Program-made: the position numbers and the translations under genes
The notes under the pieces: generated by a model
What the model saw: only the letters and a program-made list of their open reading frames with translations
Databases searched by the model: none
Told to the model about the DNA's origin: nothing
In this document: positions 18,003-51,560 of the stretch, piece after piece
How the letters are laid out: the number at the start of each line of letters is the position of its first letter
Position numbering within the stretch: position 1 is the first letter of the stretch
Source: Dehalococcoidia bacterium
GTDB taxonomy: Bacteria > Chloroflexota > Dehalococcoidia > Lucifugimonadales > SHYF01
DNA: 64,000 bases
Direction of reading: 5' to 3'
NCBI GenBank assembly: GCA_965248595.1
Contig: CBDFJM010000007.1
Location: forward strand, 383,133 to 447,132

Positions 18003-18814
18003 AGTAGAGTCCCAGGAAGTGGTGTAACAAGAGTAGAGGGTCTGGATGAAGAGAGACCACCACGTCATCCTTAGCGGGCAAAGACGAGCCTGAGAAAGGA
18101 GGACAACGGTGGTCAAGGAAAGGATGGACCTGCTTGAGCTAATGCGCAAGAGGGGAGTCGACGGTGACGTGGACTTTCTACGAGAGGCACTGAGAGTGCT
18201 GGTCGAGGAGATCATGGAGGCTGATGTGTCATCGAGGACCGGCGCTGGGTATGGAGAACGCAACCCTGAGCGGGTGACCCAGCGCAACGGGTACCGGTCT
18301 CGAGCATGGGACACTCGCGTAGGGACCATGGAGTTGCAGATACCCAAGCTGAGGGAGGGGAGCTACTTTCCGAGCCTGCTGGAGCCACGGCGTCGCAGCG
18401 AGCGAGCTCTGCTGGCGGTGATCCAGCAGGCGTATGTGGAGGGTGTATCGACGAGGCGAGTGGATGATCTGGTCAAGGCTCTTTGGTGCGAGGGTATCTC
18501 AAAGAGCCAAGTGTCGCGTATCTGCCAGGAGCTGGACGGGGTGGTGGAGAGCTTCCTGGGTCGGCCGCTGGACGGCGGATCATATCCCTACCTGTGGCTG
18601 GACGCACTAACCCAGAAGGTCAGAGAGGCCGGTAGGATAGTCAACGTCAGCGTGGTGGTGGCGACGGCGGTCAATAGCGAGGGCAAGCGTGAGATCGTTG
18701 GGATGGACGTGGGTACCAGTGAAGACGGCGCCTTCTGGTTAGCCTTCCTGCGCTCACTGTCGGCCAGGGGCCTCGGCGGGGTGGAACTGGTGGTATCGGA
18801 CGCTCATCAGGGAC
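18003..18814 (+). mobile_element. 5' fragment (812 bp) of the IS256-family element found intact at 54647-56014
   Basis: By eye the sequence is identical to 54647-55458, covering the left end plus the first 235 codons of the transposase. Identity stops at 18814, after ..catcagggac. Confidence 0.85.
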
Positions 18815-18822
18815 AGCTATGA
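18109..18822 (+). pseudogene. Truncated IS256-family (Mutator-type) transposase
   Basis: The 237-aa ORF is identical to residues 1-235 of the 403-aa transposase at 54753-55964, then diverges (..SDAHQG-QL*). It lacks the C-terminal part of the catalytic region. Confidence 0.85.
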
Positions 18823-23568: not shown

Positions 23569-25257
23569 GTGCGGCGCACTCTTTTCCTGCTTCCTGCCAT
23601 TCTCCTTGCAGCCGTTCTCTCCACTTCCAACGGCGCGCCTCCCGGCGGGGTCATAAGATTAGCAACATTTTCGAGCTCCGTGAGTTGTTGGCAGGCGCAG
23701 GTCAGTATTAATGTTCTCATGGCTTGCGCTCCTATGTATAACCAGCTTGTTCACTTCAGTCCTGAAGATCCAGCCGTCATAGTGGGGGACGGGGCAGAGA
23801 GTTGGGAATGGGGGCCTGACCCTGTGGAATGGACGTTTCACCTAAAGGCGGCGGCGCCTGGCGTCTCGGGAATAAAGCTACACAACGGCACGACGCTGAC
23901 TTCCGCCGACGCCAAGTTCAGCTTGGAACGCGCAATGGGGCAGGTCGACGGGATAGCCAATCCATCCCTCGGTCTGCTCCTGAATTCGTATATCCAATTC
24001 GTGGAAGCGCCTAACGCCCTCACTTTGCGGGTGACCACGGAATTCCCTGCCCCCTCCTTACTAGCTAACCTGGCTTCGGTCCACGCGGCCCTCTACCCCG
24101 TGGCCCTGACTGTCGCTCTCCCCGCCCCAAACCCCTGCCAGGTCATAGCCAGCGGCCCCTTCAAGTGCCAGGAGTACACAGCAGGAGTGGTAACCAAGCT
24201 AGAAAGACATGCTGACTACTTTGTGCCGGGCAGGCCATACCTGGACGGCGTGGATGTGTATGTCATCGCCGACGCTAACACCCGGCTGGCAGCGATCAAG
24301 ACGGGGCAAATCGACGTGATCCCCTTGGGGGTTACTCCGTCGGAGGCCATGGGGCTGGAATCCTTTGGCATAACTATGCAGGAGATGACCAGAAACGCCG
24401 CCTTAAATCTGATCTTGAACACCACAGTGCCCCCGTTCAACGACCTCCGCGTAAGGCGAGCGGTAAACCTGGCCCTGGACAGGGACGCTTTCGTAGCGAC
24501 GCAAGCGGGCACCAAGGGCGGGCTGATGATGCCGGGTGGCCACTGGGCCCTCCCCGAAGCAGACCTGCTGGCACGGGAGGGATACGGAGACAAGACCACA
24601 GAACGCGCACAAGCCCAACAACTTTTGGCTGATGCTGGATACCCAGCCGGGTTCCCGAGCACGATTACTACTAGGAGTCCCAGCCCCTACACCGACGCTG
24701 CTGATATCGTACAGCAGCTACTGGCGCTGGTCGATGTGGTTGCGTCCATTGAGATAGTGGATACCGCAACCTACCTTAATAAGTTAACGGGCAAGACATA
24801 CGAGATGGCCATTGACACTGTTGCGCAACCACTGGACGACATAGACCTGATGTTCTTGCGGGAGTATCTTCCTAACGCCCCGGAGAACTACACCGGCCTC
24901 GTGGACGCTCAGATGGACACGCTGTACTCCCTGCAGCAGCAACTCACTGACCCCGTAGCGCGGCTAACCAAAGCGCATGAGCTTATCAACGAGACTATTG
25001 ACCAGCAAGCCTTCCTGAATCTCTACTGGCTCAAGCGGCGCGTGCCGGTGCGGAACGTGGTCGCCGACTTCCAGGCTCACCCTAACTTGGTTCAGAACCT
25101 GCGCTGGCAGGACGTTTGGCTCACCACAGGCTCCCCACCAACGCCCACGCCAACACCCATCCCGTCGTTGAGTCGGTGGGGTATCCTTGCTCTGGCGGGT
25201 CTCCTTGGCACGCTTCTCATATGGCGGCTGAACGATAGGCGAAAGGCATCCGCTTAA
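23569..25257 (+). CDS. Family-5 (peptide/nickel-type) ABC solute-binding protein, orphan, with PT linker and IPTL-CTERM-like C-terminal anchor
   Basis: 562-aa ORF with a GTG start and signal peptide MRRTLFLLPAILLAAVLS. The body is SBP_bac_5-like. The C-terminus reads ..TTGSPPTPTPTPIPSLSRWGILALAGLLGTLLIWRLNDRRKASA. No permease or ATPase gene is adjacent. Confidence 0.8.
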   Translation: MRRTLFLLPAILLAAVLSTSNGAPPGGVIRLATFSSSVSCWQAQVSINVLMACAPMYNQLVHFSPEDPAVIVGDGAESWEWGPDPVEWTFHLKAAAPGVSGIKLHNGTTLTSADAKFSLERAMGQVDGIANPSLGLLLNSYIQFVEAPNALTLRVTTEFPAPSLLANLASVHAALYPVALTVALPAPNPCQVIASGPFKCQEYTAGVVTKLERHADYFVPGRPYLDGVDVYVIADANTRLAAIKTGQIDVIPLGVTPSEAMGLESFGITMQEMTRNAALNLILNTTVPPFNDLRVRRAVNLALDRDAFVATQAGTKGGLMMPGGHWALPEADLLAREGYGDKTTERAQAQQLLADAGYPAGFPSTITTRSPSPYTDAADIVQQLLALVDVVASIEIVDTATYLNKLTGKTYEMAIDTVAQPLDDIDLMFLREYLPNAPENYTGLVDAQMDTLYSLQQQLTDPVARLTKAHELINETIDQQAFLNLYWLKRRVPVRNVVADFQAHPNLVQNLRWQDVWLTTGSPPTPTPTPIPSLSRWGILALAGLLGTLLIWRLNDRRKASA

Positions 25258-32168: not shown

Positions 32169-32665
32169 GCTTACCTCCTACATCGTATCCACCATCGGAG
32201 GCCTTCGGGCCACGTCCAGCCAACCAGTGTAACGGAACCAAGCCCGGCGCATCCCTCCGCATCCTCCGAGCCATTCTACTGCCATGCCCCCAACTCCACA
32301 ACCAACTCAGGCCTGACCTGGCAAACGGGAATGGCTATCCCGTGGACGAAAACCGCAGGACATTGGAATGGCTGCAGACCTTCTATCTGAATGCAAGCCT
32401 TAGCCGCATTCCCGAATTTAGGAGACAGGCGTATCTACTTTCGCCACTGGACATGGGGATTTCCTCAAAACTCGTCGCCAAACCCCTATCATTCCCTAGC
32501 TAACCTGTGCATAATGGGGTGCGTAGCTTTGCCCGACAGCACCAAAAGGGTAACTATGACAGGATAAGGAGTGGTGCTGAGAGGATGACCCGTTGTCTCG
32601 TTTATACAACATGGGTGACACCAGCAGAGTGTCTCTAACCTATCATATTGGGCAAGCACATGCCC

Positions 32666-32694
32666 TTGACACCTGCGAAGTCCAATGCTAGGAT
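32666..32694 (+). promoter_or_regulatory. Candidate sigma70-type promoter of the surface-protein locus
   Basis: TTGACA (32666-32671), a 17-nt spacer, then TAGGAT (32689-32694). It lies about 95 nt upstream of the 32791 ATG, at the end of a ~620-bp non-coding stretch. Confidence 0.4.
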
Positions 32695-32790
32695 GCCAAC
32701 GGAGTTTGCGGATTCTTTCCGCCAGGAGTCTGTGTCTTTCTTTATAGCGCGTTTATTATCGTTTGACTGACCATTTGGAGGTGTCTTGCC

Positions 32791-34125
32791 ATGCTCTTGA
32801 CCAAGAGCCGTGTTTCTGTAGCAGCTATCGCACTAATCTCCCTCCTCCTCGCCTTCACCGTTTTTCAGGTGACGGAACGCGCTAGCGCCGACAACGCAAC
32901 GGGGGTCATCGTTCCCCCTGGTTCAGCAGCCAACCTGGCTTTCGCCATTGGGCCTTCAGGTGCAGCTCCTACAGTAGCCTTTGCCACCCAGCCGGTGGTT
33001 ATGATTCAGGATGCAGCAGGGAACACGGTAACATCTTCCACCGACGCCATCACCCTCGCCATTACCCCTCTGACTGGCACCGGCGGTGCTGCCCTGACAG
33101 TCCCCACGACGGTCAGCGCCGTGAGCGGCGTGGCCACCTTCGCCGGCCTCACCATTGATCTGGCTGGCACTGGTTACACATTGACGGCCACTAGTGGCAC
33201 CCTCACCGCAGCCATCAGCAGTCCTTTCAATGTGGTCGTTGCCCCTACCGCAGCAACCAAGCTTGTCATCGCCACCCAGCCATCAGGCGCAGTTCCAGGA
33301 GCACCCTTTACCACCCAGCCGGTGGTTGAAGTCCAGGATGCCACAGGAAACACGGTGACGGCTTCCACCGCCGCCGTCACCCTGGCCATTACCGCTGCCA
33401 CTGGCACGAGCGGCGCCGTCCTGGCGGGTACCACGACGGTCAGCGCCGTTAGCGGCGTCGCCACCTTCTCCGACCTATCCATCGATCTGGTTGGTGCTGG
33501 TTACACGTTGACGGCCACCAGCGGCGTCCTCACCTTAGCCACCAGCAGCGCCTTCGGCGTCGCCGGGTTCGGGGATACCACGGTCGGCAACGTAGTCGAT
33601 GCATGGGACTGGAACGCTCAAGGCACGGACATGACAGTTAACATCCTGTTGAACGCCGCTTGGGCCAACACAGTGTTCGGCATGGAAGTGTTCGTAAACC
33701 CAATTGCCAGCGAAGCGCCTGTACAGACGCAGTTCCTGGGCACTTTTGGGCCTTTCCCAACGGGACAGACCATGTGCTTCATATTCACCACGTCCAAGCA
33801 AGCCATCAAGTCAGCCGACACCCCGGTAGGAATTCACCTCCTAGGTAATGACCAGACGGTCTTGCTAGTTTCCCCCGCGCCTCTCAACACGGGCCTGCTC
33901 GCTGCGGGAGCCCAGTGTATTGAGGCAGAGTCTAGTGACCCAACTCCAACGCCAACGAGTTCATCCGCACCTGGGGCTACACCCACAGCCAAGCCGCCGG
34001 TAACAGGAGACTTCACGCCAGGCTCCGGAATGCTTACGGCACTCCTGCTGGCTGGCTTTGTGCTCATCACCGCTGGCGGCGCATATCTGCTTCAAACGCG
34101 CCCTTCCAGAGTAAGAAACTCGTAA
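32791..34125 (+). CDS. Cell-surface protein: signal peptide, two tandem ~105-aa Ig-like repeats, unique domain, PT linker, LPXTG-like (PPVTG) + TM + basic tail
   Basis: 444-aa ORF with signal ..FQVTERASA|DN. The two repeats (about 32929-33245 and 33253-33565) are highly similar even at the DNA level (..TVSAVSGVATF..L.IDL.G.GYTLTATSG.LT...SS.F.V). The C-terminus reads ..KPPVTGDFTPGSGMLTALLLAGFVLITAGGAYLLQTRPSRVRNS. Confidence 0.75.
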   Translation: MLLTKSRVSVAAIALISLLLAFTVFQVTERASADNATGVIVPPGSAANLAFAIGPSGAAPTVAFATQPVVMIQDAAGNTVTSSTDAITLAITPLTGTGGAALTVPTTVSAVSGVATFAGLTIDLAGTGYTLTATSGTLTAAISSPFNVVVAPTAATKLVIATQPSGAVPGAPFTTQPVVEVQDATGNTVTASTAAVTLAITAATGTSGAVLAGTTTVSAVSGVATFSDLSIDLVGAGYTLTATSGVLTLATSSAFGVAGFGDTTVGNVVDAWDWNAQGTDMTVNILLNAAWANTVFGMEVFVNPIASEAPVQTQFLGTFGPFPTGQTMCFIFTTSKQAIKSADTPVGIHLLGNDQTVLLVSPAPLNTGLLAAGAQCIEAESSDPTPTPTSSSAPGATPTAKPPVTGDFTPGSGMLTALLLAGFVLITAGGAYLLQTRPSRVRNS

Positions 34126-34279
34126 GCAATTCGTAAAGAAACGCCGGAAGGGAGCATTAGGTAGGTTCCAAGGCTTGACAGCTATAGTGCTGGGGCTGGT
34201 AGACTAGCGTCGTTAGGCTTCAGTGTAGGAATTCAGAGGGCAGATTCTGTACAATCCCAAGGCAGACGGCCACCACCCT

Positions 34280-37200
34280 ATGAACACCAGCGTAGCGCGT
34301 AACCGTCGTGTGGGGCTTGCAGTCCTTGCCACGCTGGCCGTTGTTGCGGTCATCCTCCTTGTCCCTGGAATCGCCCTGGGCCTGTCATCCAACTATGACA
34401 CCACCAAGGACATTTACAAGGTAGGAGAGGATGTTGTAGGCAACGCATCCATCCTGTTCAACGGTGCAAGTGAAGAGGTAGCCCAGATTGCATCTGTCAA
34501 GCTGACAGTGCAGCCCAAGGCCGGCAGCAGCAAGCCCGGGTCAGAGTCCTTCTTCGATATCGTCTTCCCCATCGACATTGGCAACCACGACCTAACCAGC
34601 TCTTTACCGGCCAACATGCAGAGCCGCGGCTCCACTCTGGAGATCGATGTGACCTGGACCGACCTGGGGCCTGCAGCAGGCGGTTACGCCGTTGGGTACA
34701 AAGGCGCCACCAATAACGCCCGCATTGACTTCGTGATCCGCTGGACACCCCCCATAAAGAAGCAGGTAGTGCCTGCTGCGCTTACCCCCCTCAACGCACC
34801 TGTCGTAGCCTTCCCGAATCCGGGCGCTGTCGTAGGTGGTGGCGCTACACTCAACACGAATTCGCAATTCGCAATCCCCGGCTTCGACCCTGTAGCACCA
34901 ACAGGCGCGACCGTGCTGGGCCTGGCCTTCGACCGGTTCAACGGGACGCTGTTGACCTTGATGGACAACCCTATCCTCGCAGGTAACGACACCATCCTGG
35001 TGGTTGATCCAACATTCGGGTTCATTTTGGACTCGATCGACACGGGCACGCCTGACGCCGAGGACGTAGCCTGGGTTGCGGAGGCTGTCGACTCCGCGTC
35101 CCTGCCATTTAGCTTCGCCGCAGGAACGGTGTGGGTCGCCATCCAATCGGGCGGCACCCAGCAAATCCAACAGGTTGTGCCACCGGCATCGACAGACACG
35201 CCTATCTCACTCTCGGATGGTCTGCCCCTCAAAGGTCTGGGTGCGTTCTCATATTTGGACCCGTCCGACAAACAGTACCTCCTGCCATCATTTTTCCAGT
35301 CCAACCCAGACCTGGATATCCCTGTTCACCGGGTGCAGCCTGACACCGGTGTAGATGTTTCGACCATGTTTCTCCCCGCCGGTCCCACTGGCGGCGGCTA
35401 TAACGATGTGGTGGTCAACGATGCGACGGGTGGTCCACCAAGCGGCCTTGGAGCCTTCGGCGATAAGCTGGGCGCGTTCGACATCCCCAGCGGGTTCTTC
35501 CTGGGATTCAAGGACGTGTTGGGCGACGGGTCTCCTCTCAACAATATCGTAGGCCTGGCCATGGATTCCGCCGGCACTCTGTTTCTTGCCGATCAAGCCT
35601 CGCCGGGCACAATTTACTCTGTTAGCCTTTCCGGAGGCGCTGGCGGTGGCGGAGAGTTCGCGCGGGCGATCACCAACGACCCTACCAACATCTTCCTGCT
35701 GATGGACGACACCGGCACCGCCGGCAAGGATGAGATCTTGAGGACAGATGGTGCCGGAACCGAAGTGAACCGGTACGACGCCCCTAGTTCGGAGCATGAA
35801 GGCTTGGCCTTCCTCGGCGGCTTCTTGTACACAGTGGACAACGGCACCTTCCCGCACAAGCTGTACAAGCTGGACCCGGCGACTGGGGCCGTTCAGTCAG
35901 GCTACCCCAAGGACCTGCCGACCTTTGTTTCTGAACTGGGAGGCCTGACCGTCAACGCCGCAGGCACCAGGCTTATAGGTGTGGACCGGTTCTCAGACGG
36001 GCTGTACGAGATTGACCCCGCCACCGGCTCTGTCACCTCCACCAAGACCATGGTTGCTACTGGTTCTGCATTCAATCCCTTTGGCATGGAGGGCCTAACA
36101 CTGGTGACAGGCGCTCCCACCAGCCCGTTCCTCCTGGGCGCTACAGGCACAGGCTTCTTCTTCATTAATATAGACACGGGTAGCATCTTCAACTTCAATC
36201 CGACCTCCGTATTCCCTCCATTCAACATTACGGGTCTGACGCAGCGCGGCACCGATATCTTGATGACCGACGATTCGCAGCAGGTGTTCCGGGCCAGCAT
36301 CCCAGGAGCGCTTACACCGGATGACACTGTGGCCGGCGACTATGAAAGCATCTTCACCGTTACGCTGGACCCGGCCGGTGGCTCGCCTACGCCTGTAACC
36401 GCGCCCTTCACCATAGAACGCGTGGCCACTCTGACAGTCACCATCACCGATCCTAGCGACGGTGCGGCCTTCACCAGCACTCCCATCACTGTCAGCGGCC
36501 TGGTGAACGACCCGACAGTGAAGAAGGTTTCGTTAGGCATTGACTTGCCATCCACTGACCTGCTTGGCCCAGCCGACTTCGAAGCGGATTCAGAGGGCTT
36601 TACCAATACAGGTTTGTGGCACCGCACCAACGACTTTGGCGGCCAGCCGCCACGGGCCATCGGCGACTGGTCTCTGGGCTACACCCGTGACACCCTTAAC
36701 GTGGGCACTGCACCGGCCGGGCCTCTCTACACATATGAGACCCCAGGTGCACCAAACAGTGGTACCTCCACCAGTGATACCTTCACCGTTGGTTCAGGCA
36801 CGAAGCTGATCCTGTCGACATGGTACGGCACAGAGCCCAACTTCTTCGGCCCTGGTGGCGGTGGCGGCGAACCTCAGTTTGACGGCAAGTACATCAAGAT
36901 CGCACCTGTTGGAGGTACGCTCCAGACCCTCGCCCAGATTGTGAGCTTCCCGCCTCCTGGTGGCGGCCCGCCGGGCACGGTGTTCAAACAGACCTCCTTT
37001 GCCTCGTGGGACCTGGTTTTTGTCCCGCCATTCTTTGAGAACTTTACCACTGGTGATCCCGTCTTCACCAAGGTGCAGCTTCCCCTGGATAGCTACGCTG
37101 GGCAGGATGTGGCCGTCCAGTTCTTCTTCGAAACAGTAGACTCGTTTGGCAACGACCTCGAAGGCTGGTCCGTTGACAACATTGGTGTCACCGGCGCTGG

Positions 37201-38887
37201 CTCAGCCGGTGACCAGCTCGTTGACGTGGTCAACGGCGTCTTCAGCGGCGAGTTTGCACTGGCCCCAGGCAGCAACGATATAAAGGTGACGGCTTCAAGG
37301 ACCGCCTATGACCCTCAGACCGTATCCGCGACGGTTACGGTCTCCCTGGACCTAAGCAACCCCATCCTACGGCTGCTCCTCAGCGAGGACGTGAACGGCA
37401 ATGGAGCGCTGAACACCGACGTGGACATCGATCTTGATGGGGATGGCACCTATGACATCACCATTGACGAGGACATAAACGGAGACGCCCTAATAACCAA
37501 ACTGGCAAATGGCGCAGAGCCGCTGGTCACCAAGACCGCCGCCCAAACGGTATTCGGCGTTTTCCAGGAAGCTAACCCTGTCCTGCTTACGGTGACACTC
37601 AACGGCAAGCTGGTGCTGTCGTTGAAGAGCGCCAACCTGGATCCAACTAAACCGTCCTTCTCCACGGCCATAAACCTTGTCAATGGCCTCAACACCATTA
37701 CGGTCAGCATGAAAGACGCTGGTGGTCTGGAGCCAGATGCTGCCGCCAAGGACGCCAGCGATAACCCGCTGAACAAGCTGTCCGTACAGGTTACCCTGGA
37801 CAACCAGGGGCCCTCGCTGACAGGCCTGGGCACCATATACCCGTTCACCGCCCTCAAAGGCAAGTCCGGCGACCCGGTGGTGTACCAGGTAAACGCTACA
37901 GATGCCGAAACCGGTATTGCCAAAGTGGAGATACTGGTTCCAGCAGTCAAGACCATGATCTCTGCGTCGGACACGCCACAGGTGCTGAGAGACCAGTGGG
38001 GCACCACAGGCAACTACCTGTTCCCTTCTATTATTGCCACCTCGACGCCGCCTGGTAGCCAGTCTTTCATAGTCAAGGCGACAGATAACGCTGGTAACAC
38101 CACTGTTGGTGCTGTGCAGGCCCAGGTCAACGCCAGCATGACGGCTTGGAACTCATGCCTCCAGAGGAACGGGAACCTGATCGCAACACCCATTCAGCCC
38201 ACTGACGGTACTCTGGACACGCTGCTGAATCAGAAGGTGTTCAACGTCAGTGCGGCGTTTAAAGCCACCCTTGTAGCCGCAGGAGAAGGCGGTGGAGACA
38301 CGAGCATAGAGTTGGATGCCGACGGCGACGTGACACTTCGCAATGTCATAGAGACTATCCAGTACTGGACCGGTGGCACTGGCGGAGCGTTCACAATATA
38401 CACGCCAAACACGACGGTTCCCGACACACTGACAGTGCTGGCGGAAGGAAAGGGGTACTGGGCATTCACCAAACCTGGCGCGTTCAAGTCGGCAGACCCT
38501 CTGCCAGGCTTTACGGAGAGCAGCTTCTCGTGCATGAACCTGACCATAGCTGGGCAGTTCCTGGCCGCGGGAGCCGTGCCTCCCACCTTCGCCCAGTTGG
38601 CGGGATGGAACACTGTGGGTGCCCATACTGAGGCCGACTCGAACGTGATTCAGTTCCTCAAAGGACTATCCCCAGAGGCGCAGGCTGCGTTAGGGTCATC
38701 GTCATCTCTGCTGGCGTTCAAGAACGGCATAGAGTTCAATTATGCCAATACATCGGACAAAGCCATCAATGACCGCGTGACTCAGAAGCTTGGCGCTTTC
38801 GAACAACGGTTCAATAATTCTGATGTTGTGCTCAGAGGAGAAGGGTTCTGGCTGTTCCTGCTTGCAAATGGCCTCCTCATTCCGTAG
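34280..38887 (+). CDS. Giant secreted/anchored protein (1535 aa): N-terminal signal-anchor, beta-propeller-like region, jelly-roll/Ig-like domains, Asp-rich Ca-binding-like segment
   Basis: N-terminus MNTSVARNRRVGLAVLATLAVVAVILLVPGIALG. It has repeated ..LY(K/E)(L/I)DPATG(A/S)V.. propeller-type blades, ..DVNGNGALNTDVDIDLDGDGTYDITIDEDINGDAL.., and a ..GLWHRTNDF....GWSVDNIGV.. jelly-roll-like domain. Coding periodicity is uninterrupted over 4.6 kb. Confidence 0.75.
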   Translation: MNTSVARNRRVGLAVLATLAVVAVILLVPGIALGLSSNYDTTKDIYKVGEDVVGNASILFNGASEEVAQIASVKLTVQPKAGSSKPGSESFFDIVFPIDIGNHDLTSSLPANMQSRGSTLEIDVTWTDLGPAAGGYAVGYKGATNNARIDFVIRWTPPIKKQVVPAALTPLNAPVVAFPNPGAVVGGGATLNTNSQFAIPGFDPVAPTGATVLGLAFDRFNGTLLTLMDNPILAGNDTILVVDPTFGFILDSIDTGTPDAEDVAWVAEAVDSASLPFSFAAGTVWVAIQSGGTQQIQQVVPPASTDTPISLSDGLPLKGLGAFSYLDPSDKQYLLPSFFQSNPDLDIPVHRVQPDTGVDVSTMFLPAGPTGGGYNDVVVNDATGGPPSGLGAFGDKLGAFDIPSGFFLGFKDVLGDGSPLNNIVGLAMDSAGTLFLADQASPGTIYSVSLSGGAGGGGEFARAITNDPTNIFLLMDDTGTAGKDEILRTDGAGTEVNRYDAPSSEHEGLAFLGGFLYTVDNGTFPHKLYKLDPATGAVQSGYPKDLPTFVSELGGLTVNAAGTRLIGVDRFSDGLYEIDPATGSVTSTKTMVATGSAFNPFGMEGLTLVTGAPTSPFLLGATGTGFFFINIDTGSIFNFNPTSVFPPFNITGLTQRGTDILMTDDSQQVFRASIPGALTPDDTVAGDYESIFTVTLDPAGGSPTPVTAPFTIERVATLTVTITDPSDGAAFTSTPITVSGLVNDPTVKKVSLGIDLPSTDLLGPADFEADSEGFTNTGLWHRTNDFGGQPPRAIGDWSLGYTRDTLNVGTAPAGPLYTYETPGAPNSGTSTSDTFTVGSGTKLILSTWYGTEPNFFGPGGGGGEPQFDGKYIKIAPVGGTLQTLAQIVSFPPPGGGPPGTVFKQTSFASWDLVFVPPFFENFTTGDPVFTKVQLPLDSYAGQDVAVQFFFETVDSFGNDLEGWSVDNIGVTGAGSAGDQLVDVVNGVFSGEFALAPGSNDIKVTASRTAYDPQTVSATVTVSLDLSNPILRLLLSEDVNGNGALNTDVDIDLDGDGTYDITIDEDINGDALITKLANGAEPLVTKTAAQTVFGVFQEANPVLLTVTLNGKLVLSLKSANLDPTKPSFSTAINLVNGLNTITVSMKDAGGLEPDAAAKDASDNPLNKLSVQVTLDNQGPSLTGLGTIYPFTALKGKSGDPVVYQVNATDAETGIAKVEILVPAVKTMISASDTPQVLRDQWGTTGNYLFPSIIATSTPPGSQSFIVKATDNAGNTTVGAVQAQVNASMTAWNSCLQRNGNLIATPIQPTDGTLDTLLNQKVFNVSAAFKATLVAAGEGGGDTSIELDADGDVTLRNVIETIQYWTGGTGGAFTIYTPNTTVPDTLTVLAEGKGYWAFTKPGAFKSADPLPGFTESSFSCMNLTIAGQFLAAGAVPPTFAQLAGWNTVGAHTEADSNVIQFLKGLSPEAQAALGSSSSLLAFKNGIEFNYANTSDKAINDRVTQKLGAFEQRFNNSDVVLRGEGFWLFLLANGLLIP

Positions 38888-39171
38888 TTGGGTTGTGGCA
38901 TCGTGAAGGAGGATCAAAGAGGCGCAGGCTACAAGAGGAACTGAGAATGCAGGCCCTTTGGGGTGAGATAGGGTCAGGGCAAAACGCCGCCCCGGTGACG
39001 AACTGGAAAGAAGCCCTCCTTCAGTGGGCAGCGAAGCAATCAGCTCTGCAAGCCCCGAGGAGGGCTTCCGATTGATTGAAGACCAAAGTCAACATCAACA
39101 AGGGTATTCGCAATTATGTATGCGCCGTCCTCGTTTGACAAGGTCTCTACTGAAGCCAAGGCTGGTGCCTC

Positions 39172-42100
39172 TTGAATAGGGTCGCGGCAAGCCTCGTGGC
39201 GGTGACGGCTGTCGGCACTCTTCTGCTCGTCAGACCGACAGAGGGTACGGGTCAGGCTGTCCCAACCCCTTCTCACGTATTCAACGGCAGCGTCCAGGTC
39301 GCTAGCGGGAACGCGCCTGACGGGACGCTGGTACAGGCCAAGATTAACGGCGTTGTTTTTTCCGAGTGCACCACCTCTACTGATGGCAGCAGTATCAGTT
39401 GCGTCACAACCGGCGGGTTCTACGGTCAAGGAACGGACTTGTTCGTTGTCCCCGGCGACGACACAGGCACGCTTGCTACCAAGGAAGGCGGCGTAGGCCG
39501 GAATCCCACAGGTTGTACCTTGGGAGTACCGCCCTGCGTGGCCGGAGACCCCATCGTCTTCTTCGTCGGAGGCGTGCAGGCCACCATGCTCCTGAACGGC
39601 GGTGTCACGCCGGTTGCGTCGGTGGAGTTCAGGACTGGCGGCATCGACAAAGTAGACCTGAGCATAACAGCCCTGCCTACGCCCACGTTCGCACCTACGG
39701 CCACGGCCACGCCTACTCCTGGCGGTGGTGGCGGCGGTGGTGGTGGAGGCGGCGGTGGCGGCGACGAAACGCCTACCCCTACACCTACGCCCACGCTTAC
39801 GCCTACGGCAACGTTGACGCCTACGCCTACGCCGACATTGACGCCAACTCCTACGCCCTCGGTGACTGGAACGCCTATTGGGACGCTCACGCCCACGGGC
39901 ACACTTACGCCCACGACCACACCTACGTCTACATCTACACCCACGCCAACCCGCACGGCAACGCCAACGGGCACATCTACTCCTACGCCGACACCAGCGC
40001 CGGTATCGGAGGGGTTCGAGGTCTCTAACCTGGTGGTGGCCCCAGAGCAGGTCAATGCTGGGCACCCTGTGACCATCACTTTCCGGGTGACCAATACAGG
40101 CAACACCCAGGCTAGCTACTCAATCCCAGTGCTGGTGGATGGGGCAACGGTTTTCACTGCCCAAGGCACCATACCCCCAGGCTCCAGCCGGTCCCACACA
40201 ACCAAAGTCACCAGGGTACAACCGGGCACATATACCGTTCAGGCGGGTGACTTGGCAAAGCCCTTTACCGTCCTGGCAGCCAACATCCAGTTCTCCAATC
40301 TCAACGTTCGTCCCCAGACTGTTGGCTCAGGCGACCCAGTCACCGTCAGCGTCGTCGCTACCAACAGCGGTTCCGCTGGGACCTACAACGCAGCCCTGCT
40401 CATTGCAGGGATCCAGGAATCCTCGCAGACAGGGACCCTGACGCCAGGTCAGAGTAAGACCCTGATATTCTCTGTCAGCCGGAGCCAGCCAGGGACTTAC
40501 GTCGTTTCGTTGGAAGGACTTAGTGGTTCCTTCAGAGTGGTGGCGCCAACTTTGGATGCGGTTGCCTCTCTCCCACCTCAGGTCAACGTTGACGCCGAGG
40601 CCACCGGTGTGGACGCCAATGGTGCAACAGTGACCGTTACCGGGGACACGGTGACCGTCTCAGCAACTGAGATTGAGCTGCCAATCGGTGTGACGCTAGG
40701 GACAAACCTTGATACGTTCCAGGATGACGTGAGCGGAATCACCGTAAAAGATAACATCATAGAGATCCCGCTAGCCAGGGACACAGATGGTAACGTCGCA
40801 CTCACCCTGGTCGCCGAAACCACTGGAATTGTGGGCACGGGAACCACGGCCAAGGCCCAGGTCTCGAAGCTGCGCCTGCTCACAAAGCAGCAAGAGATTG
40901 ATGTCAGCGCGGACACCCCAACGTTGGCCCAAACCGTAGCCTTTAGCGTGGACGCGGAACTGTTGAGACTGCCCACGGGTGCCACACTTACCATGTCTCC
41001 CAAGAAAGAGCTGCCAGTTACGGCAAAGGCAGGCTTTCAGCTGGTGGCCGCCGGCGCTGGCAATACCATCAAGAGCATAGGCGCGGCCGTCGAAATCACA
41101 CGCACAGGCCTTGTGAACGGCACGGACGTTGGCGAGGTCACGATGACCATGGCGGCGGACCCAACGTGGGTCGCTGAACAGGGCGGCCCAGGCGCTATCC
41201 AGATTACACGCCTGGCCGACGACGGTTCTCTGGAGTTCCTGCCGACGGTGCAGGTGGGCGTGGATGCCGAGGGCCGCATGGTGTTCGAGGCCATATCAGT
41301 AAATGGCTTCTCTATTTACACCATTCTAAGCGTTGTCCCCGCTCCCGCCTCATTCATCGTCACCAGCCTGGCCCTGGACCCGCAGGTGGCAGAACCCAAT
41401 GAGGCTGTGGCTGTTACCGCTCAGGTAGCCAACCAGGGCGCGCAGCCTGGCACCCTGGGCATCATCCTCAAGGTGGATGGGATACCGCTGGACACCCTGG
41501 ACATCACTGTGGGGCCGGGAGAGACTGGAAATGTGGTCTTCTTCCTGACGCAGGCGGAAGAGGGGACATACCAGATTCAGGTGGAGGAGCAAACCGCCAC
41601 CCTGGAGGTAGCCAAGACACTGCTCCCAGCCGTCATAGGCTACGGAACCCTAAGCGTCTCGCCCAAGCAGGTGACCCCCAATGAGCTGGTCACGGTTACA
41701 ATACAGGTCACCAACAGCGGTAACGTTGCGGGCAAGGTGGACCTCCAGGTGCTGCTGAACGGCGCGCTCCACCAAATAACTCCTATAAGGCTGCCAGGAG
41801 GACTAACGGTCCCTTTGAGCTTCACCATAGCCCTAGAGGAAGCCGGCGACTACACGTTAACCATAGGTGGTGTAAGCGATACGTTCACCGTGGCCAAACC
41901 CTTGACCAGCGCCGCCTTTACTGTCTCTAACCTCGACATCAGGCCCGCCGAGGTGAAGCCAGATGAGCGTGTGACGATTGTGGCGGTTGTGGCGAACACC
42001 GGCGACCTGCAAGGCACCTTCGACGTGGTACTTCGAATCAACGGACAGCAGGAGGCTACAGAGACGGTCACCCTGGATGGCAAGGCAACATCCCTTGCCA

Positions 42101-42588
42101 TATTCGATGTCACCAAGAGTGAGCCTAGTACATACACCGTCCAGGTAGAATCCCTTCAAGGTACCTTCGATGTCCTGAGCGTACCCACGGCCGTGCTTTC
42201 CCTGTCCGAGCTCCAGGTATCGCCCCAGGCTGTACAGGCCGGCGAGCAGGTCACCATTACGGTCAAAGTCTCCAACAGTGGGGACGCCGCGGGCAGCAAG
42301 ACGGTGACACTAAATATCAACGGTGCAGTGGAGGCGACCAAGGAAGTGACCGTTTCCGCCAACGCCGCGCAAACCGTAAGCTTCCCAGTTACGCGCGACG
42401 AGGGGGGCACATACAACGTTGAGATAGAAGGTTTGACCAGCAGTTTTGAGGTCACCAGTGCACCAGGTGGCGCACCCATAGGCCTGATCATTGGCATAGT
42501 ATTGGCGGTACTGGTAGTGGTAGGCGCAGCGGTGTACTTCCTTGTGCTGCGCAAGCCGTCATCGGCTGATGCCCCGGCTCAAAGCTGA
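39172..42588 (+). CDS. Giant surface protein (1138 aa): signal peptide, beta-sandwich module, Gly13 + PT linker, six CARDB-like repeats, PGF-pre-PGF-like insert, C-terminal TM anchor
   Basis: TTG start, [21 protein letters not shown] 13-Gly run (39721-39759) and a long T/P linker follow. Six ~85-aa units of the type VSNL.V.P..V..G..VT....V.N.G...G.......nG........l..g......f.v......GtY.v...gl...F.V are CARDB-like. It ends ..[36 protein letters not shown]. Confidence 0.8.
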
Positions 42589-44146: not shown

Positions 44147-45082
44147 ATGGTTGATTCAGGCATCCAACCCTCCCTGGACATTGACCCCTCTCTGCTTATT
44201 GATATAGAGAAGCACGCCGTCAGCCTGGCTGCCGAAGCCGGAACTCTGCTGCTGGACTATTTTCAACGAAAGCTCCAGGTGGAGTTCAAGTCCAAGGGCC
44301 AACGAGACCCAGTTACCGAGGCGGACAAGAAGGCCGAAGAGATTATAGTCACAGGCATCCAAAGCCGCTTCCCACAGCACGGCATCCTGTCCGAGGAGAC
44401 ACCCGAAACCCAAGCCCCAGACAGCGATTTCCTCTGGGTGGTGGACCCTCTCGATGGCACCAACAATTTCATCAACCGATACCCATTCTTCGGCGTCTCC
44501 CTGGGCGTTCTCTACAAAGGGGTCCCCGTTGCAGGGGCGCTGTTCACGCCACCGCCTTTAGCTACGGAAGGACAGGTGCTCCACGCCCGGCTGGGAGGCG
44601 GCGCCTTCGCTGGAGATGTCCCCATTCGCGTATACGACGAAAAGGAACCTTCAACTCGCGGGCTTCTGGCGATGCCAGCCTTTGCCTGGAGACAGTTCCG
44701 CTGGAGGAGAGACCTGAGGCGGACGCAGGGGGACGTGCGCATCACAGGCAGCATTGCGTGTGAACTGGCTCTAGTCGCCTCCGGGGTGCTGCAATACGCT
44801 GCCTTCGTAGGCCCGAGGATATGGGATGTAGCCGCGGGCGTCATCATTGTCCGGGAGGCGGGAGGCGAGGTACTGGTGCACGGAAAGAACCGTAGGTGGG
44901 AACCCTTGCGGTCCTTCCTTGAACCTACCACCGGCCTTCCCGCGGATGGCGATCTCAGGAAGTGGCGCACCTGGCTGCTGACCGGCAACTCGACGGTGGT
45001 TGCCCAGGTGGGCACAGGTCTGAGGCCCCGCCGCAGGCCATGGCGATGGCTTCGGCGCCGGCTAACAAGACGGACAGGCTAG
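44147..45082 (+). CDS. Inositol monophosphatase / CysQ-family phosphatase
   Basis: Motifs ..GILSEE.., ..WVVDPLDGTNNF.. and ..WDVAAG.. are present. The Arg-rich C-terminal tail is unusual. Its stop overlaps the convergent SCO1664-like gene at a CTAG. Confidence 0.8.
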   Translation: MVDSGIQPSLDIDPSLLIDIEKHAVSLAAEAGTLLLDYFQRKLQVEFKSKGQRDPVTEADKKAEEIIVTGIQSRFPQHGILSEETPETQAPDSDFLWVVDPLDGTNNFINRYPFFGVSLGVLYKGVPVAGALFTPPPLATEGQVLHARLGGGAFAGDVPIRVYDEKEPSTRGLLAMPAFAWRQFRWRRDLRRTQGDVRITGSIACELALVASGVLQYAAFVGPRIWDVAAGVIIVREAGGEVLVHGKNRRWEPLRSFLEPTTGLPADGDLRKWRTWLLTGNSTVVAQVGTGLRPRRRPWRWLRRRLTRRTG

Positions 45083-45828
45083 AACAATGGCCAGGGCACA
45101 GACCGGCGCGGGCCAGGGAACGGAAAGCGGCCACTCCTAAGCAGAGCCCCCACTCGGCGACTGCAGGCTTCCACTTCGGAGGAGTCGAGCAGGGCAGCGA
45201 GCTGTTCGCCCAGGCCTCCGGGCTCTGGGAACCGTTCTATAAGATGGCTCAGGTCTCTCAGCACATGTTCAGGTACATGGTCCCCGGCGAAGTCCCAGAT
45301 CACGGTGCGCAGCCTTGGCTGGGTGTGGAATGTGATGCCGTGGTCTATGGCCCAGATACATCCTTCAAGACCCAGGAGACAGTGGCTAGCCTTGCGGTCA
45401 ACGTTGTTGGTGACAACATCAAAGGCACACAGTTCGAGCATCTCCTCGTGGTACGCATCACGCAGCGTAAAGTAGTTGGCCGCCGGGTCCGACTCCATGA
45501 AGAGCTGCACGGAACCTATGCCGTGGACACCCTCTCGGATGACGGTGGGCGGCACAAAACCCCAGCCCAATGCTTCGCTCACGAGGTAGGCAGCGCACTC
45601 CCTCTGATAGAGGGTGCCGGTGGGAAAGTCCCACAAAGGTGCCTCGCCTCTCTGAGGTTTATAAACCACCTGGCACTGGCCTTGGACGCCGTCGGAAACA
45701 GTCGCAAAGAACGTATAGTTGGAACCGATGGGCGCCAGGCGGTAGTCAGCCATCCTGCCATGTGCCAGCAGGTCCATCAACTCCGCTGGGAACTTTGGGC
45801 GTTGAACTCTTTGTGGCCTATGCTCCAC
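45079..45828 (-). CDS. SCO1664-family protein (PI3/4-kinase-like fold, function unknown)
   Basis: 249-aa ORF. ..VVYKPQRGEAPLWDFPTGTLYQRECAAYLVSEALGWGFVPPTVIREG..VTNNVDRKASHCL..IDHGITF.. matches my memory of the actinobacterial/Chloroflexi SCO1664 family (TIGR03843). It is paired with DUF3090. Confidence 0.6.
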   Translation of the reverse strand: MEHRPQRVQRPKFPAELMDLLAHGRMADYRLAPIGSNYTFFATVSDGVQGQCQVVYKPQRGEAPLWDFPTGTLYQRECAAYLVSEALGWGFVPPTVIREGVHGIGSVQLFMESDPAANYFTLRDAYHEEMLELCAFDVVTNNVDRKASHCLLGLEGCIWAIDHGITFHTQPRLRTVIWDFAGDHVPEHVLRDLSHLIERFPEPGGLGEQLAALLDSSEVEACSRRVGALLRSGRFPFPGPRRSVPWPLF

Positions 45829-45917
45829 TGGAAAGCCACCTTTGAACGACGGCTGTTGCTGAACGCCACATTAACGGAAGCCGTTGTTGAATATGGTGTA
45901 ACGGGGCAAGGAAGGCT

Positions 45918-46451
45918 TTAGGCTTCCGGCATCTTGTGGCCGTTGTGCCTGGGACATACGTGGGCTTCCGGCCCCATGGGAGCCCCGCAGAGAGGGCAGT
46001 TGGACCTCCCTGCCGCACATACGGCAAACGCCTCGTCTGCTAGAGAGTCTATCTGGTCACTGGTAGCCACGAGGCTTACCGATGGAATGGCATCGTCCTC
46101 AGTTTCAGTATCGTAGCCCAAGATGATAAACAGTGCCGTGCCTTCGTCATAGCCAATAGACATCCTGCCCACCTGAAACTCCATCGCGCTACTTCCCCCA
46201 GATGAAGGATCGCCCAGGATTTCAGGGTTAGCACTCCCTCTGGTGCCTGCCCTGCCTTGCTCCTCCACGGTGGCAATGATGCGCTTGATAGCGACGCCCA
46301 AGTTGAAGAGTTGCCCCTTTTCCAGCCATACAACAGCCGATCCACCATTGCGGGCCTCTACCGCAAGTCGAAAATGCCGCGACCCCGGCTGGCCAATGGC
46401 CTCGGCCTTCAGGCTGGAAACACGGCCCAACTCATGCTGCGCTTCAGTCAT
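45918..46451 (-). CDS. DUF3090-family protein with C-terminal zinc ribbon
   Basis: 177-aa ORF. ..LKAEAIGQPGSRHFRLAVEA..VWLEKGQL..L...I.. plus C-terminal ..CPLCGAPMGPEAHVCPRHNGH.. is the remembered DUF3090 (TIGR03847) pattern. It lies immediately upstream of the SCO1664-like gene. Confidence 0.6.
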   Translation of the reverse strand: MTEAQHELGRVSSLKAEAIGQPGSRHFRLAVEARNGGSAVVWLEKGQLFNLGVAIKRIIATVEEQGRAGTRGSANPEILGDPSSGGSSAMEFQVGRMSIGYDEGTALFIILGYDTETEDDAIPSVSLVATSDQIDSLADEAFAVCAAGRSNCPLCGAPMGPEAHVCPRHNGHKMPEA

Positions 46452-50386: not shown

Positions 50387-50408
50387 TGGTGGCTATGGAG
50401 GCCACGCT

Positions 50409-51404
50409 TTGAGCCTGGTGGGCATCATAGCCAACCCTTCCGCCGGCAAGGACATCCGCCGCCTGGTGGCCCACGGTCGCCTGGTGCCCAACCACGAAAA
50501 GGTCAATGTTATCCGCCGCGTCCTGCTAGCCCTGGATGTGGTGGGGGTGAGCCGTGTCGTCATCATGCCTGACACCTCGGCCCTGGGTTCCCAGGCCCTG
50601 GAAGAAGCCCCGCTTGGAATGGCGGCGGATATACTGGACATGCCGGTTTTCGGCGATGAGAACGACTCCACGCACGCCGCCGAGCTAATGGTGCAGATGG
50701 GGGCTGGATGCCTGGTGACCCTGGGTGGCGACGGCACCAACAGGGTTGTATCCAAAGGCTCCGGCCAGGTGCCCCTTGTCCCCATCTCCACGGGCACCAA
50801 CAACGTCTTCCCCGCCATGGTGGAGGGCACCACTGCCGGTCTGGCAGCGGGACTGGTAGCTATGGGCCAAGTGGACCTGGCGAAGGTCTCAATAACCTGC
50901 AAGCGGCTGGAGGTGTACGTAGACGGAGAGCTCAAAGATATAGCCCTCATTGACCTAGCCGTTTCCAAAGAGCGCGCCGTTGCGGCCCGGGCTATCTGGA
51001 ATCTTGACACCATCCATGAGGTTTTCCTTTGCCGCGCCGAGCCTTCCAGCATTGGCCTGTCCTCAATCGGTGCATGGCTCCACCCAGTGTCCGCAGATGA
51101 CCGGTCGGGGATATACCTTCGCCTTGGCCCGGGAGGCACCACGGTGTTGGCAGCCGTAGCACCAGGCATGGTGCAACCGGTGCCCATCGCCGACTGGCGG
51201 GTATTGAGCATCGGCGAGCGGGTGGAAGTTGTACGCAAACCGAGTACCATAGCGCTGGACGGGGAGCGGCAGTTCACTGTGCAGCCTATCCAAGAGGTAG
51301 AGGTGGCCGTAAGCGACAGAGGGCCTCTCGTAGTAGCCATAGACGCGGCTCTCATGGAGGCGGCTCGTCTGGGCGTCTTTGTAGACTCCCGCTGGAATGC
51401 CTGA
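50409..51404 (+). CDS. ATP-NAD kinase-fold protein (AcoX-like)
   Basis: 331-aa ORF. ..VGIIANPSAGKD.. and ..LVTLGGDGTNRVV.. NAD-kinase/diacylglycerol-kinase-type motifs are present. Its position after the E2 gene mirrors acoX in aco operons. Confidence 0.65.
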   Translation: MSLVGIIANPSAGKDIRRLVAHGRLVPNHEKVNVIRRVLLALDVVGVSRVVIMPDTSALGSQALEEAPLGMAADILDMPVFGDENDSTHAAELMVQMGAGCLVTLGGDGTNRVVSKGSGQVPLVPISTGTNNVFPAMVEGTTAGLAAGLVAMGQVDLAKVSITCKRLEVYVDGELKDIALIDLAVSKERAVAARAIWNLDTIHEVFLCRAEPSSIGLSSIGAWLHPVSADDRSGIYLRLGPGGTTVLAAVAPGMVQPVPIADWRVLSIGERVEVVRKPSTIALDGERQFTVQPIQEVEVAVSDRGPLVVAIDAALMEAARLGVFVDSRWNA

Positions 51405-51483
51405 GACAGCAAGTAGCTTGTTCCGGTATAATCTGGTGATAGCTGCCGCAACGATACTGTTTTTCAGATATAATTCATTGTGC

Positions 51484-51560
51484 GCGCCCGTAGCTCAGCG
51501 GAACAGAGCATCGGTCTTCGGAACCGAGGGTCGTGGGTTCGAATCCCACCGGGCGTACCA
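51484..51560 (+). tRNA. tRNA-Arg (anticodon TCG)
   Basis: Hand-folded 77-nt cloverleaf. Acceptor gcgcccg/cgggcgt (G1-U72), D arm gctc-agcggaaca-gagc, anticodon arm tcggt-cTTCGga-accga (U33, anticodon UCG), T arm gtggg-ttcgaat-cccac, with an encoded CCA. Confidence 0.9.

Follow-up and report, generated by a model that had tools for sequence, protein, structure and literature searches.

A conserved pair of large surface-protein genes in Dehalococcoidia, a candidate two-component surface layer

Three consecutive genes, here called g1, g2 and g3, were analysed in a 64,000-nucleotide stretch (the window) of contig CBDFJM010000007.1 from a Dehalococcoidia bacterium (assembly GCA_965248595.1). Judged by gene order in related genomes, the conserved unit of this locus is the pair of g2 and g3 and not the trio, and the adjacency of the two is obligatory. 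The pair carries two unannotated signature domains, one at the C-terminus of g2 and one at the N-terminus of g3. By family searches it is undescribed and, as far as names show, restricted to Chloroflexota. Tentatively, the locus is read as a dedicated cell-surface complex of this Dehalococcoidia lineage, which would most likely be a two-component surface layer (S-layer) with g2 held by a g3 stalk. The genes are as follows.

32791-34125, forward strand: g1, 444 aa, ATG start
34280-38887, forward strand: g2, 1535 aa, ATG start
39172-42588, forward strand: g3, 1138 aa, TTG start, as in g3 orthologs

A sequence-only reading of this DNA had described three consecutive same-strand reading frames of 444, 1535 and 1138 aa on about 15% of the window, which proved exact (14.6%). 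All three products carry N-terminal signal sequences; g1 and g3 end in one transmembrane (TM) helix each, followed by a basic tail. They can thus be regarded as exported or surface proteins without an enzyme signature, as had been proposed; Pfam and NCBIfam scans gave no enzyme, transporter or sorting-enzyme family but only generic immunoglobulin-like (Ig-like) and CARDB domains. The combination had not been recognised as a described system, and this view was upheld by the lack of any family match for the defining domains and of sequence relatives in the PDB. The 'three different anchoring solutions' of the same reading were overstated: g1 and g3 both have a TM helix with a basic tail, to which g1 adds a sortase-like motif, and g2 is most likely anchorless.

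Gene order in related genomes

A word-index search with g2 returned only eight clusters, whose named members were all 'hypothetical protein' entries from Dehalococcoidia or Chloroflexi metagenome-assembled genomes (MAGs). A genome scan pointed to these taxa again, with groundwater and deep Lake Baikal as sources. Every named relative is thus in agreement with the Chloroflexota-type cell that had been suggested from the letters. When a profile of g2 residues 700-1535 was run against 1.84 billion representative proteins, 1718 were matched at E ≤ 1e-3 and 103 at E ≤ 1e-30, and the family is therefore much larger than the word-index search implied. The named members of the family sharing the g2 C-terminal domain were all Chloroflexota, and g2 is regarded as the founder of an uncharacterised Chloroflexota family.

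In the closer genomes (related loci are given L numbers, proteins P numbers) the order is a g1-like gene (351-603 aa), g2 (1441-1568 aa), a g3-like gene (747-1241 aa) and lytB. The full order was present in L001, L002 and L012. The contigs of L003 and L005 begin within or just before g2, and in L004 g1 and g2 are followed by a gene for a cadherin/Big_9-repeat protein. The locus adjoins lytB in six genomes (the window, L001, L002, L003, L005 and L012). In the closer genomes, g2 is 53-73%, g3 56-68% and g1 30-38% identical to the window protein, compared with 75-89% for LytB. The faster divergence of g1-g3 is as expected for exposed proteins. On comparative grounds g1, g2 and g3 are real genes, because orthologs at 30-73% identity hold the same order in other genomes.

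All twelve loci with downstream DNA have a gene of the g2 family followed by a gene with the g3-type N-terminal domain (N-domain), with g2 identities from 73% to 28%, and the partner gene encodes a C-terminal TM helix wherever the contig reaches the gene end. An N-domain profile built from five sequences (window g3 and its four closest orthologs) matched six of seven independent partner genes with E = 2e-10 to 3e-35; the seventh, in L015, matched a broader profile only (E = 8e-22). Among 599 six-frame open reading frames (ORFs) of at least 150 aa from the window and the loci, the five-sequence profile found no match outside g3-type genes. The distant loci with such a partner after a g2-family gene are L010 (28% identity), L011, L013, L014 and L015, and their neighbouring genes differ.

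Both ends of g3 are kept in these comparisons and its middle is freely swapped between loci (CARDB, Fn3-like, Big_2, cadherin/Big_9 and Pro/Thr linkers). The partner gene of L011 has Fn3-like expansions (to 2124 aa), the one of L012 has Big_2 repeats without CARDB, and the one of L010 combines helical repeats with a true PGF-pre-PGF domain. Fixed ends with an exchangeable middle are as expected of a spacer between a membrane anchor and a binding head. No g1-like gene lies upstream of the pair in L010 and L011. Conserved three-gene synteny, which had been proposed as a check, was thus found in close relatives, but only g2 and g3 are kept in distant loci.

The same data bear on the explanation that the locus holds three independent surface proteins which are neighbours by chance and form no complex. 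The gaps of 154 bp (g1-g2) and 284 bp (g2-g3), with possible internal promoter-like sequences, would allow separate transcription, and the loss of g1 from L010 and L011 fits this as well. It is nevertheless improbable, given an adjacency of g2-type and g3-type genes in 12/12 loci that persists down to 28% identity though the neighbours differ in L010, L011 and L013-L015, and given an N-domain profile without other match among the 599 ORFs.

Two distant loci showed further features. L013 (3617-17768) has two g2-family genes (1231 and 1463 aa) with a DDE transposase between them, and three short ORFs precede its g3-type gene, one of which (133 aa) resembles a detached fragment of the C-terminal domain; from this layout the locus appears to have been rearranged by a mobile element. 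In L011 (21364-24662), genes for a PTPS_related (PF10131) membrane protein, a nucleotidyltransferase and a further CARDB protein come after the pair and may be a surface-glycosylation cassette.

Domain architecture of g2, g3 and g1

g2 is a protein of 159 kDa with an isoelectric point (pI) of 4.2. Its features were assigned from sequence, profile searches and AlphaFold2 models, whose confidence is given as predicted local distance difference test (pLDDT).

34280-34381, forward strand: signal peptide, aa 1-34, ...LLVPGIALG then L (sequence reading and hydropathy)
34382-34747, forward strand: N-terminal Ig-like beta-sandwich, aa 35-156 (AlphaFold2 model m4ac5fe65fdd8, pLDDT about 80)
34787-36349, forward strand: beta-propeller region, aa ~170-690, about 37 strands
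36434-37204, forward strand: Big_7-like Ig domain, aa 719-755, then MAM-like jelly-roll, aa ~770-975 (sub-threshold Pfam matches)
37376-37504, forward strand: Asp-rich stretch with DxDxDG-type loops, aa 1033-1075
37526-37729, forward strand: Glucodextran_B Ig-like domain, aa 1083-1150 (PF09136, 42.1 bits vs cut-off 27)
38240-38884, forward strand: C-terminal domain of ~213 aa, aa ~1321-1535, ending in Pro

The C-terminal domain belongs to no Pfam or NCBIfam family. It is marked by the motifs G-x-GYW, VPP, GWN-x-x-G-x-H-[ST]-E and G-x-GFWLF. In all 73 matches its end is 0-8 residues away from the terminus of the protein, and 58 of the 73 are Pro-ended. A free-standing protein made of this domain was considered and dropped; the short carriers are gene fragments on short contigs.

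At the other end of g2, the hydrophobic segment had been taken for a signal-anchor. The segment is there, but a cleaved signal peptide is more likely than an anchor because the cleavage-type site (VPG-x-ALG, then L) is conserved in the family. The protein has no other hydrophobic segment and no TM helix, and it most likely has no anchor of its own. Export by the Tat route was rejected: the RNRR of g2 is not conserved in the family, which has RSYR, QRGK or KRSR instead.

The beta-propeller claimed for g2 was corroborated by AlphaFold2 and Foldseek. A model of residues 1-720 (pLDDT 69) was usable for the Ig and propeller part only; it has strands throughout aa 175-673 and a confident five-bladed C-terminal propeller unit (aa ~460-665, pLDDT 80-93). 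Foldseek searches of the PDB with the g2 models gave hundreds of propeller proteins at probability 1.00, double-propeller proteins included, and such matches between predicted and solved structures show the fold only. The best superposition of the five-bladed unit was on the bacterial glutaminyl cyclases 3MBR and 3NOL, with TM-scores of 0.66-0.69, a root-mean-square deviation of 4.3-4.7 Å and 15% identity. Both g2 models also matched 1L0Q from Methanosarcina mazei (E = 1.6e-9 and 3.7e-8), a fragment of an archaeal surface-layer protein in which a YVTN beta-propeller is followed by a PKD domain much as the g2 propeller is followed by an Ig-like domain; identity is 13-17%, the TM-score is low and the fold generic, so that the match is no evidence of common descent.

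Between propeller and C-terminal domain, the jelly-roll of the sequence-only reading is suggested by an InhA-like_MAM match (PF20773) at aa 927-975, which with 16.2 bits (E = 0.0077) stays below the cut-off of 26.9. The Big_7 match is also below its cut-off (20.2 bits). The same pair of matches recurs in the family member P0191 (MAM 17.1 bits), and the Glucodextran_B match recurs in g2 family members. The D-rich stretch was found as claimed (aa 1033-1075), though it is shorter in L001 and missing in L002.

Superposition on glutaminyl cyclases and the weak MAM match could be taken to mean that g2 is an exported enzyme, with a glutaminyl-cyclase-like or InhA/M6-associated activity, and g3 its tether. 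Pfam and NCBIfam gave no match of g2 to a glutaminyl cyclase family, and neither Glu_cyclase nor a peptidase family was detected at any threshold used. Moreover, the five-bladed propeller is a generic fold, the InhA MAM domain is non-catalytic and g2 has no peptidase domain. An enzymatic role is accordingly rated as hardly credible.

g3 consists of a signal peptide, the N-domain, a Gly14 and Pro/Thr linker, two CARDB repeats, a central domain, four further CARDB repeats and a TM helix.

39259-39666, forward strand: conserved N-terminal domain, aa ~30-165 (local hidden Markov model searches)
39667-40011, forward strand: low-complexity linker, Gly14 and then Pro/Thr repeats
40012-40542, forward strand: CARDB repeats 1-2 (Pfam and self-profile)
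40546-41349, forward strand: central domain of ~270 aa (BLASTP to P0028, hhalign)
41350-42459, forward strand: CARDB repeats 3-6 (Pfam and self-profile)
42457-42558, forward strand: C-terminal TM helix, then LRKPS... (hydropathy and sequence)

The N-domain is common to g3 and P0028, and in the distant orthologs P0010 and P0011 its position scores as CarboxypepD_reg. CARDB (PF07705) was matched in five stretches by Pfam (95.4 bits vs cut-off 22.7), and a self-profile gave six repeats with E about 1e-37 each and 24-40% pairwise identity. The six repeats noted before were hence confirmed, in a 2 + 4 arrangement, and hydropathy did the same for the C-terminal TM anchor. The Gly14 run (39721-39762, aa 184-197) is replaced in orthologs by shorter Gly runs or a poly-Pro run, and the length of this tract may be variable.

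The central domain had been called an archaeal-looking pre-PGF-like insert, and this is weakly supported. In the window g3, the central region gave no match to TIGR04213 (PGF-pre-PGF, cut-off 28 bits) at E ≤ 1. Sub-threshold scores were obtained for P0010 and P0011 (13.8-14.5 bits) and for the g1 ortholog of L001 (13.9 bits). True domains are found in the L010 partner gene (78 bits) and in P0028 (67 bits), at a place equivalent to the g3 central domain, directly ahead of a CARDB repeat or of the membrane anchor. The last ~70 residues of the central domain align in register with these true domains (BLASTP to P0028; hhalign E = 0.04 over 71 columns). Archaeal PGF-pre-PGF proteins differ from g3, whose anchor is a plain TM helix: its tail has no PGF motif and no match to an NCBIfam sorting signal, and g3 does not pass for a PGF-CTERM/archaeosortase A substrate. 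By domain membership g3 is a CARDB protein and not a PGF-pre-PGF protein.

g1 comprises a signal peptide, two Ig-like modules, a beta domain, a Pro/Thr linker and a sortase-type tail.

32920-33561, forward strand: tandem Ig-like module of the Big_1/invasin-D3 class, aa ~44-148 and ~153-257
33994-34122, forward strand: C-terminal sorting-type tail, PPVTGD at aa 402-407, TM helix at aa ~413-435, basic end RPSRVRNS

The duplicated Ig-like module proposed earlier stands as a duplication, since 69 of 104 residues (66%) are identical between the two copies of ~105 aa each. g1 itself has no Pfam match, but homologs with repeated g1-type modules score as Big_1/Invasin_D3; the module is thus Ig-like only through transitive homology. 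More than 1345 homologous module-bearing proteins were found in many phyla. The modules are 45-63% identical to ones from other phyla, among them Gemmatimonadota, Acidobacteriota, Actinomycetota and Planctomycetota, and g1 as a whole is 30-38% identical to its positional orthologs. Exchange of modules between proteins is suggested, because g1 modules are nearer to those of other phyla than g1 is to its own orthologs.

Orthologs of g1 were found in L001, L002, L004 and L012. They retain the signal peptide, the beta domain with its W-x-W...EVF-x-x-P signature and the tail, and the other ectodomains are swapped. From this pattern g1 is a fast-evolving, variable accessory surface protein limited to closer relatives.

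The tail reads PPVTGD-FTPGSG-TM-RPSRVRNS. Its layout is of the sortase type, as had been proposed, but the motif of the window protein is not a literal LPXTG. In the family it is LPTTGD (L001), LPVTGD (L002), PPVTGD (window and L004) or PAAGD (L012), and a hydrophobic helix and a basic end follow it in all five. The family tail, in which a short spacer separates [LP]P-x-[TA]-G-D from a hydrophobic helix with an end rich in Arg and Lys, resembles the sortase substrates of TIGR01167 (LPXTG_anchor, cut-off 15.9 bits). The L001 tail passes this model with 20.0 bits and the L002 tail scores 8.7 bits. The window tail (KPPVTGD...) differs in being below the LPXTG cut-off, with no TIGR01167 match at E ≤ 10 and with LPxTATN as its only match (13 bits vs cut-off 32); further differences are the lost Thr in L012 and an unusually conserved TM helix. 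PPxTG is close to (S/P)PXTG, the sortase motif of Clostridioides difficile. No sortase ORF of the TLxTC type was detected in the 64-kb window or in 15 fetched loci.

These results leave little room for a sortase-assembled fibre or pilus-like structure, with g1 as polymerised or wall-linked subunit and g2 and g3 as tip and base. Canonical LPxTG tails that pass TIGR01167 in some g1 orthologs would favour it, together with weak matches to the pilus model PamR of the candidate phyla radiation (CPR; 15.6-19.6 bits vs cut-off 300). However, the motif occurs on g1 alone and is variable, no sortase gene was found in the window or the 15 loci, g1 is missing from distant loci that retain g2 and g3, and no pilin-type motif was recognised. 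Such a fibre is therefore judged very unlikely.

Leader region and surroundings in the window

The region in front of the locus contains the following features.

32169-32790, no strand assigned: intergenic region of 622 bp between a divergent CoA_binding_2 gene and g1
32666-32694, forward strand: promoter-like site TTGACA-17-TAGGAT with TG extension, 97 bp ahead of the g1 start codon

About 620 bp of non-coding DNA with a near-consensus promoter had been reported. The length and the site were recovered, but four promoter-like sites were observed in the leader region compared with 3.4 in shuffles. The site at 32666-32694 has a plausible position and is no more than a candidate, because the count of sites equals the shuffle expectation. 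An Rfam scan found no family in the 622-bp leader or elsewhere in the locus; the sole Rfam match of the window was a single tRNA gene (51484-51557, forward strand), which is adjoined by a 352-aa ORF without Pfam match (50393-51451, reverse strand).

Upstream of the locus lie a MacB/FtsX ABC pair, a short-chain dehydrogenase (SDR), a low-molecular-weight (LMW) phosphatase and the divergent CoA_binding_2 gene; downstream, lytB/ispH is followed by an inositol monophosphatase gene. By their predicted products these are unrelated housekeeping genes, and no enzyme partner of g1-g3 was found among them. Recent horizontal acquisition of the locus is not suggested. The GC content of g1-g3 (0.58-0.59) matches the rest of the window, the effective number of codons (ENC) is native as well, and the place beside lytB is conserved.

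Downstream of the inositol monophosphatase gene, the ORFs 44147-45082 (forward), 44962-45921 (forward) and 45079-45828 (reverse) overlap. In orthologous loci the gene called at the equivalent of 44147-45921 runs on the minus strand, with a weak PI3_PI4_kinase match. The 319-aa forward-strand ORF (44962-45921), which has no Pfam match, is probably not a gene because orthologous loci have the minus-strand gene there.

Three Mutator-family transposase ORFs were found on the forward strand at 18109-18822, 52511-53755 and 54753-55964. The one at 18109-18822 is truncated (237 aa, matching positions 7-236 of the 379 in the profile), and the other two border an MFS transporter gene on the opposite strand.

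An SBP_bac_5 ABC solute-binding protein of 562 aa (23569-25257, forward strand) has a C-terminal IPTL-CTERM signal (PF18203, 26 bits vs cut-off 20.8), and its tail reads ...PTPTPTPIPSLSRWGILALAGLLGTLLIWRLNDRRKASA. Because the protein ends in IPTL-CTERM, it suggests that the organism anchors exported proteins by a system of the exosortase/archaeosortase type, a route unlike the tails of g1 and g3.

A candidate two-component surface layer

In the proposed working of the locus, g2 would be exported and freed from the membrane by signal-peptide cleavage. The C-terminal helix of g3 would root it in the cytoplasmic membrane, and its exchangeable spacer of Pro/Thr linker, CARDB repeats and central domain would span the envelope. 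The N-domain at the membrane-distal end would capture g2, probably via the g2 C-terminal domain, and g2 and g3 together would form the outer protein layer. g1 would be a variable accessory of the same surface, fixed by a sortase reaction or merely by its own TM helix. In this scheme, we infer the binding of g2 to g3, the contacting domains, lattice formation and the sortase processing of g1.

The closest analogue in proposed working is SlaA/SlaB of Sulfolobales. SlaA (~1400 aa) is exported and anchorless, and the adjacent gene encodes a smaller partner with a C-terminal TM helix, SlaB, whose membrane-distal N-terminal beta-domains hold SlaA. That accessory proteins such as SlaB anchor S-layers in archaea has been described (supplement of bioRxiv 10.1101/2024.05.28.596244). 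Likewise, g2 is very large, exported and anchorless, and its neighbour g3 is smaller and TM-rooted. The two pairs differ in that their sequences are not similar, Pro/Thr linkers and CARDB repeats form the g3 stalk in place of a coiled coil, the host of g2 and g3 is a bacterium, and a g2 lattice is putative.

Within the same class of bacteria, the S-layer protein Q3Z6N3 of Dehalococcoides mccartyi (1001 aa) was experimentally identified and has two N-terminal beta-propellers (bioRxiv 10.1101/2024.05.28.596244). The propeller region of g2 is also near the N-terminus. However, g2 is about 50% longer and, as far as the descriptions go, has a different C-terminal half; no Dehalococcoides protein was found among the named homologs of g2. 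Tepidiforma has an S-layer (PMC10284905), and the S-layer proteins predicted for Tepidiforma and 'Dehalococcoidia bacterium' (A0A5J6SYT4, A0A2A9HDU3 and A0A7Y5SD43) are Ig-rich, have 1230-1419 aa and are assigned a p4 lattice (bioRxiv 10.1101/2024.05.28.596244). They belong to the same class, are similar in size and Ig content to g2 and were also found by a genome scan for large exported proteins. By description, the difference lies in the anchor. In Tepidiforma, peptidoglycan is present and an Ig-like domain is the putative anchor (PMC10284905; supplement of bioRxiv 10.1101/2024.05.28.596244), whereas g2 has a separate TM partner.

Several traits of the proteins are S-layer-like: all three are large, acidic (pI 4.2-4.35) and Cys-poor, and g2 has Ig-like and beta-propeller domains. 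Further support for an S-layer-type role comes from the core-genome place of the locus, from the S-layers documented in the class, from the archaeal S-layer fragment 1L0Q among the fold matches and from the apparent glycosylation-type genes beside the L011 pair. On the other side, a number of observations weigh against an S-layer. Conserved adjacency proves co-function and not physical contact. Codon bias is average, with an ENC of 47.6-50 for g1-g3 in a window that ranges from 39 to 57, and N-glycosylation sequons are not enriched in g1-g3. g2 has no similarity to solved S-layer proteins or to any other PDB sequence (no match at E ≤ 1), and the PDB sequence search with g1 and g3 gave low-complexity or marginal matches only. 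The fold matches of g2 are generic propellers with low TM-scores, and an AlphaFold2 run on g2 residues 336-1535 (7 sequences) reached a pLDDT of 52 and left the C-terminal domain unmodelled. The lineage might also carry a homolog of Q3Z6N3, A0A5J6SYT4, A0A2A9HDU3 or A0A7Y5SD43 elsewhere in its genome. The S-layer, envelope-building or adhesion role expected in the sequence-only reading is partly supported, and the S-layer role is inferred. Pfam and NCBIfam scans of g1-g3 gave neither SLH nor another S-layer model; PACE-CTERM-PROT ('putative S-layer protein') had weak, CARDB-driven matches in P0010 and P0011 only. Confidence in the two-component S-layer is kept somewhat short of an even chance because of the average codon bias and the lack of homology to known S-layer proteins.

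An adhesion or substrate-capture apparatus is nearly as likely as the S-layer, if still doubtful in its own right. Here the g3 stalk would display the g2 binding head to particles, polymers or cells, and g1 would be an extra variable adhesin. Propellers, MAM-like jelly-rolls, Big and CARDB repeats and DxDxDG loops are typical of adhesins and polymer-binding proteins, and Ca-binding adhesin domains of the SiiE type are among the Foldseek matches of g2. The Ig module family of g1 is huge and occurs, in many phyla, in proteins annotated as 'beta strand repeat-containing' or as adhesins. g1 and the g3 spacer vary like host- or substrate-facing adhesins, and an average codon bias suits moderate expression. 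Adhesin islands are, however, usually patchier than core loci, and in every close relative this one occupies a fixed core-genome place beside lytB, in exactly one copy per locus. Furthermore, no carbohydrate-binding or enzyme family reached threshold in Pfam or NCBIfam, and the Ca-binding stretch is dispensable in orthologs.

Returning to the two-component S-layer, its more specific form is that the g2 C-terminal domain and the g3 N-domain are a new docking system that builds the layer as a bacterial counterpart of SlaA/SlaB. This is put forward as a possibility on the unlikely side. In kind, g2 and g3 are a surface-layer or surface-display system and not a categorically new one.

Groundwater, lakes, sediments and the ocean all harbour abundant Dehalococcoidia, yet hardly any have been cultured and little is known of their envelopes. 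To our knowledge, an S-layer protein has been identified or predicted in this group for Dehalococcoides and Tepidiforma only. With the g2-g3 pair, a further Dehalococcoidia lineage gains a concrete candidate for its envelope scaffold, and if the pair is not an S-layer, it is still a lineage-wide surface complex. The practical gain will be modest until expression or imaging data exist. The two unannotated domains could become family models and serve as markers for surface proteomics, studies of phage receptors and the interpretation of cryo-electron tomography. If the docking and S-layer reading is true, abundant groundwater and lake bacteria would have arrived at an archaeal-style envelope plan from unrelated proteins, with a stalk of adjustable length.

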